Translations under genes and position numbers: made by a program
Notes under the pieces: generated by a model
Database searches by the model: none
What the model was told of the DNA's origin: nothing
The model's input: only the letters and a program-made list of their open reading frames with translations
Shown here: positions 8,487-11,941 of the stretch, in pieces
Numbering within the stretch: the stretch's first letter is position 1
Layout of the letters: each line of letters begins with the position of its first letter
Origin: Escherichia coli
GTDB taxonomy: Bacteria > Pseudomonadota > Gammaproteobacteria > Enterobacterales > Enterobacteriaceae
Assembly: GCF_003334305.1 (NCBI RefSeq)
Contig: NZ_QOWS01000025.1
Strand: one strand, 5' to 3'
Length of the DNA: 64,000 bases

Positions 8487-10631
8487 TTATTGCAGGTCAG
8501 TTGCAGTTGTTTTCCAAAAACTTTCCCCACGCGCGCCCATCTCGACCAAACGCTCGCAAGGGGTAAAACGGGAACCATACTGCGTGGCAAGTCGTTGCAT
8601 TATTGCAACCACTTCGCCCGCGCCGAGAGAATCGATATAGCGGAACGGTCCACCGAGAAATGGCGGAAAACCAATGCCAAATACCGCACCAATATCCCCG
8701 TCACGCACGCTACGGATAACCTGCTCATCAACACAACGTACTGCTTCATTCAGCATCAACATCACACACCGTTCAGCAACCTGCGGTGCGGAGAGTCGCC
8801 CCTGCCCTTGTGCGCCAATGAGCGGGTAAATGGCGGGATCGACCTGTTTTTTGCTTTTACGCCCTTTCTGACCATAAAGATAGAAACCCCGACCATTTTT
8901 TCTGCCTTTGCGATCGTCGTTCAAAATTGAAGAAACAACATTTGCAGGCGCGCTAAAACGTTCTCCATAAGCGGCTTCCAGTACAGGAATAATTTTAGTC
9001 CCGGTGTCGATTCCTACCTCATCCAAAAGTTGGATTGGACCTACCGGAAAACCAAATTTCACTAGCGCGGCATCAATGTGCTCTACCCGTTCACCTTCGG
9101 TCAGCATGCGGATAGCTTCATTAATGTAAGGCGCTAAGATGCGATTGACGTAAAACCCGGCTTTGTCACGCACGACAATGGGCGTTTTGCCCTGTTTTTT
9201 CGCCAGTTTTACCGTAGTGGCGATGGTTTGCGCCGATGTACCCGCATGAGGAATAATCTCTACCAGCGGCATTTTTTCCACCGGACTGAAGAAATGCAGG
9301 CCGATAACTTGCTCAGGTCGCGTGGCGTGAGCGGCGATATCACCAATCGGCAAAGATGACGTATTCGAAGCAAAGATGGTATGAGCGGCGCAATTTTGCT
9401 CCACTTCCGCCACCATCTGTTGTTTTAATTCGAGATTTTCAAACACCGCTTCAATAATCAGATCGCGATGGGCAAAGCCGCGATAGTCCGTCGTTCCGGA
9501 GATTAATGCCAGCTGTTTGTCACGTTCGCTGGCTTTGAGATGACGACGGCGAACTTTGCCCTCCAGCTGATCCCAACTGTACTTCAGCGCATGATTTATG
9601 CCCTGCGGGTTGATATCTTTAATTCTGACCGGAAGCCCCGCTTTACAAGCAGTGACATAAGCAATACCGCCGCCCATCAAGCCACCACCTAAAATTCCCA
9701 CGCTGTTTAATGGCGCAGGCGGTGCATCACTACCGGGATCTTTCTTCACTTCCGTACTGGCAAAAAAGATACTACGCAAAGCTTGCGATTGTGGCGTCAT
9801 CGCCAGTTCGCCAAACGCCCGAGCTTCGGCGTCATAACCGCTGCTGGTGCCCTGCGCTAATCCCGTTTCAACAACCTCCAGGATGCGTTCTGTCGCCGGA
9901 TAATTGCCTTGAGTTTTGTGTTCTGTTTTCTTGCCGACCATTTTGAACAGCAGCGCACGACCTAACGGCCCCGCCAGAATACGCTCGCGTACAGGTAGAG
10001 GGCGGGAAGATGGGCGATCCTTCTTCGCCAGCTCAACAGCGGCTTCCAGCAAAATGGAGTGCGGAACAACGTCATCCACCAGCCCCAGCTTTAATGCCTG
10101 TTTCGCCCGAAGTTGTTTTCCGGTGAGAATCATCTCTAATGCTGTACTGACGCCTATCAGACGCGGTAAACGCTGGGTGCCGCCTGAACCGGGTAACAAT
10201 CCAAGTTGTACTTCAGGCAAACCGAGCACCGTTTTAGGATCGTCAGTACAAACGCGACCGTGGCACGCCAGCGCCAGCTCCAGCCCACCGCCCAGGCAAG
10301 CGCCATGAATAGCCGCGATAACCGGAATGGGCAAAGCATGAATCTCCGCCATCAACTGTTGGCCCTGCCGCGCCAGTGCTTCCGCTTCTTGCGCCGTTTT
10401 GCAGTTGCCGATCATGTTGATGTCTGCGCCAGCAATGAAGTTGTCCGGTTTAGCGGAGACAAACACCACGCCTCGCAACTCTTTGTTTTCACGGAGTTGC
10501 TTAATAATGGCGCGCACCTGCGAGGCAAACTCCGCCTTCAGGGTATTCATTTTCTCACCCGGTACGTCGATGGTGATAACGGCAATGTTGTCCAGACGAA
10601 CATTAAGGGTAAACGCTGATGTCATTTCCAT
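8487..10631 (-). CDS. fadJ: anaerobic fatty-acid oxidation complex alpha subunit FadJ (enoyl-CoA hydratase / 3-hydroxyacyl-CoA dehydrogenase)
   Basis: 714-aa ORF with crotonase-fold N-terminus and 3-hydroxyacyl-CoA dehydrogenase region; start overlaps fadI stop. Confidence 0.96.
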
Positions 10632-11941
10632 TATTCCGCCTCCAGAACCATTGCCGCGCCAAGCCCACCGGCAGCACAGGCGGTAACTAAACCAAATCCA
10701 CCGCCGCGACGGTGAAGTTCATGCAATGTCTGGGTAATCATCCGCGCGCCGGTCGCCGCGAAGGGATGCCCGTAAGCAATCGAACCGCCAAGCACGTTAA
10801 ATTTGCTATCGTCCACTTCGCCAGTGGCATGTGCACGCCCCAGTACTTCACGAGCAAAACGTTCGCTGCCCAGCAACTGAATATTCGCCAGTGTCTGAGC
10901 GGCAAAGGCTTCGTGCATATCGATCAATGTCAGATCGCTCATCGTCAAACCGGCACGTTCCAGCGCCAGCGGCGTTGACCAGGCCGGACCGAGCAACATG
11001 TCCTGCCAGACATCAATCGCAGTAAATGCGTAGCTGCGCAGATACCCCAGCGGTACCAGCCCTAATTCTTTCGCCCGGGATTCAGTCATCAGGATCACCG
11101 CCGCTGCGCCATCGGTCAGCGGCGTACTGTTCGCCGCCGTTACCGTTCCGTGTTTGCGATCAAACGCCGGGCGCAGCTTTGCGTAATCGGCAAGCGAGGA
11201 ATTACCGCGAATATTGTTGTCTTCGACAAGCGGTTGTTTATAAGGAGGGATAAAGGCAGTCATCACCTCTTCTTTGAGTTTACCGTCTGACCACGCCTGA
11301 GCGGCACGCTGATGCGAACGGTGCGCTAATGCATCTTGCTGTTCTCGGGTGATGCCGTAGGTTTTCGCCATTTGTTCGGCGGTGTCGCCCATCCGCAAGC
11401 CAGTAGAATATTCTGCTACCGCAGGCGGTACGGGCATTAAGTCGCGCAAACGCAGGCGAGAGAAGAGTTTCAGTCGCTGGCTCATGGTTCGAGCTTTGTT
11501 GACATCAACCAGCACGCGCGCCAGTTTTTTACTGACGCCAATTGGCAATACGGAAGAGGAATCTGCCCCACCGGCAATCCCCGCTCGGATAGTTCCCGCC
11601 ATCAGGCTTTCTGCGACGTTTGCAACCGCCTGGAAACTGGTAGCGCAAGCGCGGCTGACGCTGTAAGCATCGGTATGCACATTCATTCCGGTACCGAGAA
11701 CAATTTCACGCGCAATGTTGGGGGCTTCAGGCATTTGTACGACCTGACCAAAGACCAGCTGTTCAATCACTTCAGCGGGGATCTCGCTGCGTGCCAGCAG
11801 TTCGCCTACCACCATCTTCCCTAAATCAACCGCGGGAATGCCATGAAAAGCCGTCGCCTGGCGGGCAAAAGGCGTACGTAAACCGCTAACAATGGCGATA
11901 CGATCGCCCTGGCGGGTAACCAGCGGTAAAACCTGACCCAT
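10631..11941 (-). CDS. fadI: 3-ketoacyl-CoA thiolase FadI
   Basis: 436-aa thiolase-family ORF; FadR-like operator just upstream. Confidence 0.96.

Follow-up and report, generated by a model that had tools for sequence, protein, structure and literature searches.

Stop/start overlaps of one and four nucleotides in an Escherichia coli chromosome segment, with a focus on fadI/fadJ

Several neighbouring genes in a 64,000-nucleotide (nt) stretch of Escherichia coli DNA (contig NZ_QOWS01000025.1 of assembly GCF_003334305.1; the whole stretch is called the window here) overlap by one or four nt, the stop codon of one gene interlocking with the start codon of the next. Here we focus on the pair fadI/fadJ and compare it with the other overlapped pairs. 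The junctions are probably ordinary -1 and -4 overlaps of co-transcribed genes (the commonest same-strand spacings in E. coli), with termination-reinitiation plus unfolding of the embedded ribosome-binding site as the likely mechanism. For fadI/fadJ, sequence comparison across Enterobacterales is clear evidence that the fadJ ribosome-binding site within fadI is under selection, as is the placement of the start codon over the stop codon. Junction anatomy, conservation and synonymous-site constraint are read directly from the sequences; the coupling itself is inferred.

Coordinates of coding sequences (CDSs) were moved from RefSeq onto the window, and each of the 53 CDSs begins with a start codon, ends with a stop codon and is free of internal stops. 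The junction coordinates are consistent with how RefSeq annotates K-12 MG1655 and a nearly identical strain, H15 (NZ_CP010178.1). The window is a chromosome segment of a non-K-12 E. coli strain, collinear with H15 (15 differing positions before 61225, where a 115-bp indel begins); its fadIJ region is matched in all 5,426 complete E. coli genomes, with 100% identity to several. The features of the fadI/fadJ junction are:

10631..11941, minus strand: fadI CDS, 436 aa, thiolase subunit, the upstream gene (RefSeq transfer)
8487..10631, minus strand: fadJ CDS, 714 aa, alpha subunit, the downstream gene (RefSeq transfer)
10629..10633, minus strand: TAATG, made of the fadI TAA (10633-10631) and the fadJ ATG (10631-10629); the same in K-12 and H15
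10639..10643, minus strand: GGAGG Shine-Dalgarno sequence of fadJ, 7 nt 5' of the ATG, in fadI codons Leu433-Glu434-Ala435

The fadI/fadJ junction across Enterobacterales

A first-pass annotation of the window had noted that fadI and fadJ share base 10631, and this is so: the plus strand reads CATTA at 10629-10633, i.e. TAATG on the minus strand. A scan for FadJ with one genome per species gave 80 Enterobacterales loci (63-96% FadJ identity) and thus, with the window, 81 sequences. Junctions were scored automatically in 79 of them (the window and 78 loci); L047 and L078 failed the automatic test and were read by eye. The fadJ start codon is interlocked with the fadI stop in 78 out of 79 scored sequences (64 TAATG, nine ATGA and five with ATGA/GTGA plus TGATG options), and the two junctions read by eye are both TAATG, giving an overlap in 80 out of 81 sequences in total. 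The sole exception is Mixta theicola, with a +4 spacer.

The arrangement GGAGG-N7-ATG is found in 80 of the 81 sequences. The length of the FadI C-terminus varies (LEAE-stop, LEAAQ-stop, LEVAS-stop) while this spacing stays constant: it is kept where FadI gains one codon (LEAAQ-stop, LEVAS-stop) and the junction has moved from -1 to -4. The GGAGG consists of the final base of codon Leu/Val433, the Glu434 codon and the first base of codon Ala/Val435 of FadI. Glu434 is encoded by GAG in 79 out of 79 sequences, but in three further conserved Glu columns GAA accounts for 64-86%. The last 103 codons of fadI contain 80 conserved degenerate columns, and the Glu434 codon is the only one of them that never varies; neighbouring synonymous sites are saturated, and the adjacent Ala third position takes all four bases. 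As a comparative example of a selected Shine-Dalgarno sequence embedded in an upstream gene, fadI/fadJ is a clean one. Replacing GAG by the synonymous GAA at Glu434 would make the fadJ ribosome-binding site weaker and leave FadI unaltered. An ATG at codon 3 of fadJ is present in only 31 out of 79 scored sequences, so the overlapped ATG is taken as the real fadJ start. This conservation fits reinitiation and de novo initiation alike.

In Rahnella (L061-L068 and L070; junction near 2454-2470) the fadI stop is interlocked as ATGA, and a second in-frame ATG, preceded by a GAGGGA of its own, lies 8 nt past the fadI stop; this leaves the fadJ start ambiguous in the genus, and two initiation sites may coexist.

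Other overlapped pairs in the window

The remaining junctions discussed here are:

26634..26638, minus strand: TAATG, emrK stop and emrY start, -1, with a weak GGAC Shine-Dalgarno-like match upstream
50003..50007, minus strand: TAATG, ypdF stop and ypdE start, -1 overlap
50010..50017, minus strand: GGGAGAGG, Shine-Dalgarno sequence of ypdE within the 3' end of ypdF
2540..2543, minus strand: ATGA, yfcQ start and yfcR stop, -4 overlap
2055..2058, minus strand: ATGA, yfcP start and yfcQ stop, -4, homologous to the yfcR/yfcQ junction
28215..28218, plus strand: ATGA, evgL stop and evgA start; evgL is a 9-codon leader open reading frame (ORF) at 28189-28218
44823..44843, plus strand: ypdA stop (44824-44826), ypdB GTG (44841-44843), 14-nt spacer and a TTG at 44823

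Five out of six junctions listed in the first-pass annotation, fadI/fadJ among them, were upheld, each interlocking as TAATG (-1) or ATGA (-4) between adjacent genes on the same (minus) strand with intact CDSs and proper starts and stops. Thus emrK and emrY share base 26636, ypdF and ypdE share base 50005, and yfcR/yfcQ and yfcQ/yfcP overlap by 4 nt. Two details needed correction: ypdF is the upstream gene of its pair (the order had been given the other way round), and the one-base overlaps, which had been labelled as ATGA-type, are TAATG junctions of the -1 type, ATGA being the 4-nt class. The Shine-Dalgarno sequence embedded in the upstream gene is GGAGG for fadJ, GGGAGAGG for ypdE and of the GGUGG type for yfcQ and yfcP; for emrY it is weak or absent (GGAC). 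The ATGA overlap of evgL and evgA is an additional junction, not named in the first-pass annotation. The evgL ORF (MLHCKGNNL) is preceded by a strong GGGAGAAGGGAG, and is annotated in K-12 but absent from the H15 annotation. A longer, leader-type overlap is that of the small ORF ypeD (29 aa, 57145-57234, minus strand), which runs 20 nt into the start of mntH.

The ypdF/ypdE overlap of -1 is observed in six out of six genera (E. coli, Salmonella, Citrobacter koseri, Kluyvera, Scandinavium and Enterobacter mori), with the ypdF stop alternating between TAA and TGA (TAATG or TGATG) and the ypdE Shine-Dalgarno sequence retained in the other five as GGGAGA or AGGAGA. A 472-aa protein (P0019, from NCBI) holds both Peptidase_M24 (YpdF) and Peptidase_M42 (YpdE) domains and corresponds to window positions 48968-51090; it is apparently a read-through or frameshift fusion over the TAATG junction in some genome.

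For emrK/emrY, E. coli and homologues with 83%, 77% and 72% identity have the overlap (TAATG or TGATG); Serratia fonticola has a spacing of +3 and Hafnia alvei one of +8. A good Shine-Dalgarno sequence is missing from every overlapped junction in the emrK/emrY clade, whereas the paralogous genes emrA and emrB are separated by a spacer (+16 in K-12, +39 in Yersinia) and their junctions carry AGAGG or GGAGG. Such a contrast is what the reinitiation model predicts, and on this sequence comparison emrY would therefore be the best candidate for obligatory coupling; the contrast between emrKY and emrAB provides a natural means of testing reinitiation against initiation de novo.

The two yfc junctions share 19 identical bases, GGTGGATTACCAATGAAAA, which encode the fimbrial C-terminus VDYQ-stop (CAA TGA) followed by MK... 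Because these bases are shared although yfcQ and yfcR have only 33% protein and about 53% DNA identity, the two ATGA junctions, with the same VDYQ-stop/MK motif, were ruled out as independent pieces of evidence.

Whether a pair is called overlapped depends on start-codon annotation, as two examples illustrate. The first-pass annotation also reported an overlap of ypdA and ypdB, but in both RefSeq records the annotated ypdB GTG starts 14 nt past the ypdA stop. An overlap (TTGA) requires the mechanical first start, TTG 44823, and was rejected because this TTG adds six residues before the canonical response-regulator N-terminus, while the annotated GTG at 44841 is preceded by its own GGAG and the protein then reads VKVIIVEDE. 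The other example is yfcR, annotated in K-12 from the ATG of a TGATG overlap with yfcS (MTGGVMSQKF...; window 3049-3067; L001 3585). In the window this ATG lies in another frame because of a 1-nt indel, and the start of yfcR is 15 nt past the yfcS stop, behind GGGAGGG; the K-12 yfcS/yfcR '-1 overlap' is thus probably an annotation artefact.

The window has 29 same-strand adjacent CDS pairs, 16 of which are spaced between -20 and +30 nt, and five out of these 16 lie at -1 or -4 (P = 2.8e-4 against a null of uniform spacing). Pairs within -8 to +6 make up eight out of 29 in the window and 707 out of 2987 (24%) genome-wide (p = 0.66). The spacing pattern is non-random, yet normal for E. coli, in which -4 and -1 are the dominant same-strand spacings. 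For K-12, Huber et al. 2023 (PMC10666635, Table S2) give fadI-fadJ, emrK-emrY and ypdF-ypdE at -1, yfcQ-yfcP, yfcR-yfcQ and evgL-evgA at -4, and evgA-evgS at +4. All five overlapped pairs are thus already catalogued, and the arrangement is ordinary; stop/start overlaps and translational coupling are textbook matter and the exact pairs have been tabulated, so the overlaps have little significance alone.

The window differs from K-12 and H15 at several other places. The csc genes cscB, cscK, cscA and cscR (18297-23183) are flanked by tRNA-Arg(CCU) (17781-17855) on one side and, on the other, by a remnant of dsdX (23426-23644) that is truncated at its 5' end and adjoins dsdA (region 17781-24990); at the same tRNA-Arg(CCU), K-12 has prophage CPS-53 plus intact dsdC/dsdX instead of these sucrose genes. 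The fimbrial usher gene yfcU (3837-6479) is intact, with 880 aa, and is a pseudogene in K-12 MG1655. A single tRNA-Ala(GGC) gene is found in the window (61149-61224), as against two in H15 that lie 115 bp apart; the indel near ~61225 is the chief difference between the two sequences.

Coupling, complexes and rival explanations

Coupling is plausible for these pairs, given the conserved overlaps of fadI/fadJ, ypdF/ypdE and, less deeply, emrK/emrY. Using dual reporters, premature stops and mRNA controls, Huber et al. 2019 found that four out of five native E. coli ATGA pairs are coupled (the exception is bioBF), and work from the same group showed that coupling drops steeply with distance, decaying within about 20 nt; distances of -1 and -4 fall inside the range reported in the literature to support reinitiation (about -8 to +10 nt). 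The literature describes both fadIJ and emrKY as operons, and a simple consensus scan, weak evidence in itself, gave no sigma-70-like promoter in 10300-12200, a region that includes the 3' region of fadI. An internal fadJ promoter inside fadI was accordingly considered and dropped on the same weak evidence.

A 2025 review distinguishes two models of coupling, RNA unfolding and reinitiation. At the present junctions, a ribosome ending the upstream gene would terminate atop the downstream start codon, so that the ribosome or its 30S subunit could reinitiate there (termination-reinitiation), and its passage would keep the embedded ribosome-binding site unfolded for fresh ribosomes. At fadJ, initiation would be guided by the strongly selected GGAGG exactly 7 nt upstream and is probably a mix of reinitiation and de novo initiation; the same logic may apply to ypdE with its conserved GGGAGA motif. 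As emrY lacks a useful Shine-Dalgarno sequence, its translation is probably mostly dependent on reinitiation, with an output at or below the level of EmrK. For yfcQ and yfcP, the ATGA would arise where the conserved fimbrial C-terminus ...VDYQ (CAA TGA) meets the MK... of a signal peptide. In this way the overlap would link downstream translation to upstream translation, and would be no specific device for making equimolar complex subunits.

The last point bears on the proposal of the first-pass annotation that the overlaps reflect stoichiometric co-expression of complex partners, which fits FadI/FadJ only; ypdA/ypdB, as noted, do not overlap. FadIJ is a trifunctional-enzyme complex modelled as a hetero-octamer. 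EmrAB-TolC, the homologue of EmrKY, has three TolC, six adaptor and one transporter subunits and is not equimolar, so by homology EmrK should outnumber EmrY; the order of emrKY, adaptor first and transporter second, matches a 6:1 pump and inefficient reinitiation, not equimolar synthesis. YpdF (M24) and YpdE (M42) are unrelated aminopeptidases with no known complex, and YfcP, YfcQ and YfcR resemble the minor fimbrial subunits StfG, StfF and StfE. In E. coli generally, 30.4% of closely spaced pairs encode complex subunits as compared with 6.8% of distant pairs; complex-coding pairs are enriched among close pairs, yet most overlapped pairs do not encode complexes. The entry for fadI-fadJ in Table S2 of PMC10666635 (b2342/b2341) is marked 'CMPLX not' despite the FadIJ trifunctional-enzyme complex, which looks like a curation slip; the complex enrichment in that table is therefore slightly underestimated.

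Several observations weigh against coupling, and most of them are also what an explanation without any coupling function would draw on, namely that a fresh 30S subunit binds at the gene's own Shine-Dalgarno sequence and that the overlap is a by-product of compaction and of ATGA and TAATG arising easily, since the start codon supplies most of the stop codon. We consider this possible but on balance unlikely. Our literature search yielded no experiment on any of these pairs and no paper linking fadI/fadJ with translational coupling. The pair bioBF is overlapped yet uncoupled (Huber et al. 2019), so the ATGA architecture is no guarantee of coupling, and the review just mentioned credits the abundance of -4 overlaps perhaps partly to ease of evolution. 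The Shine-Dalgarno sequences of fadJ and ypdE are good, conserved and optimally spaced, and a strong selected one would be equally needed for independent initiation. Nor are the overlapped starts hidden by excess RNA structure: the energy needed to open the -18 to +10 region, computed in a -99 to +30 context for 52 gene starts, is 8.8 kcal/mol for overlapped starts and 8.5 kcal/mol for the 47 others (p = 0.26), and the folds of the five junctions (-99 to +30) are no more stable than those of shuffled sequences (z from 0.17 to -1.5), so de novo access is not obviously blocked. The gene ypdE, at distance -1, is in the kasugamycin-sensitive list (KEV < 0.5), like ordinary Shine-Dalgarno-led genes, whereas it is among the kasugamycin-resistant transcripts that downstream genes at close spacing are enriched; emrY is near-neutral in that translatome, and these data, the sole pair-specific ones retrieved, are weak and ambiguous (an indirect microarray assay of poorly expressed genes). 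Furthermore, 69.6% of closely spaced E. coli pairs code for no complex, and FadBA and EmrAB, the paralogous complexes, function with spacers of +9 and +16 nt, respectively, between their genes, so their assembly does not require an overlap. On the other side stand the four out of five tested E. coli overlaps that are coupled, the persistence of the overlap in 80 out of 81 fadIJ loci despite changing junction type and FadI length, and the retention of the overlap by emrY and its close homologues without a usable Shine-Dalgarno sequence, where the spaced emrA/emrB have one.

The same structural data bear on a different form of coupling, RNA unfolding as at atpHA, in which a structure formed with the upstream coding sequence hides the ribosome-binding site until it is translated through. 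A 6-bp hairpin (GUUCUG/CGGAAU) does enclose the fadJ GGAGG in the minimum-energy fold, the opening energy of yfcP is comparatively high (13.2 kcal/mol), and the yfcQ and yfcP junction folds have z-scores of -1.4 and -1.5; but z is 0.17 for fadJ, -0.76 for emrY and 0.15 for ypdE, and the fadJ hairpin is not maintained, its partner base being a free Ala third position (GCG 23, GCA 16, GCT 16, GCC 11) with no compensating change. Occlusion of the downstream starts was rejected on these grounds, neither the opening energies nor the shuffled folds giving a signal within the local range tested, and we regard such unfolding as improbable here. Least credible is that the overlaps are annotation artefacts, with the true starts downstream and gene callers choosing the longest ORF. 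This does hold for the claimed ypdA/ypdB overlap and probably for the K-12 yfcS/yfcR start, and fadJ has a second ATG at codon 3; however, the Shine-Dalgarno spacing of fadJ suits the first ATG, which is far more widely conserved than the codon-3 ATG, yfcQ and yfcP begin with MK signal-peptide N-termini at the ATGA, and the overlapped start is conserved across genera (fadJ in 80 out of 81 sequences, ypdE in six out of six, emrY in four out of six). Judged by this conservation, the overlapped start codons of fadJ, ypdE and emrY are taken to be the real starts.

We also raise, tentatively, a stronger form of the termination-reinitiation reading. The strict selection on the fadI/fadJ junction could mean that translation of FadI is obligatory for FadJ synthesis (e.g. 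for co-translational FadIJ assembly), and in parallel the emrKY clade (overlap, no Shine-Dalgarno sequence) and the emrAB clade (spacer and Shine-Dalgarno sequence) might be a natural case of paralogues that switched between dependence on reinitiation and independent initiation.

Comparison with known systems

Several characterized systems resemble the pairs described here. The trpB-trpA pair of the E. coli trp operon has the same one-base stop/start overlap between co-transcribed genes, there encoding two subunits of one enzyme; coupling has been shown experimentally for trpBA, while fadIJ, emrKY and ypdFE are known by sequence. The pairs studied by Huber et al. 2019 (hyfHI, astDB, ydbH/ynbE, plus menDH, all coupled, and the uncoupled bioBF) have the -4 ATGA junction of yfcR/yfcQ/yfcP and evgL/evgA, and likewise a Shine-Dalgarno sequence embedded in the upstream gene, the importance of which varies by pair; they differ in having been assayed by dual reporter with mRNA controls, whereas the pairs in the window are catalogue entries only. 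In atpHA, part of a complex-encoding operon, downstream translation also depends on upstream translation, but this coupling needs an occluding RNA structure and acts over a spacer, and no such structure is supported at the junctions of the window.

The paralogues provide the other comparison. FadBA belongs to the same families as FadIJ and forms the same kind of trifunctional beta-oxidation enzyme, but its gene order is reversed and the genes are separated by the 9-nt spacer; emrAB, like emrKY, encodes an MFS tripartite pump working with TolC, but its genes are separated by the 16-nt spacer, which carries an AGAGG Shine-Dalgarno sequence.

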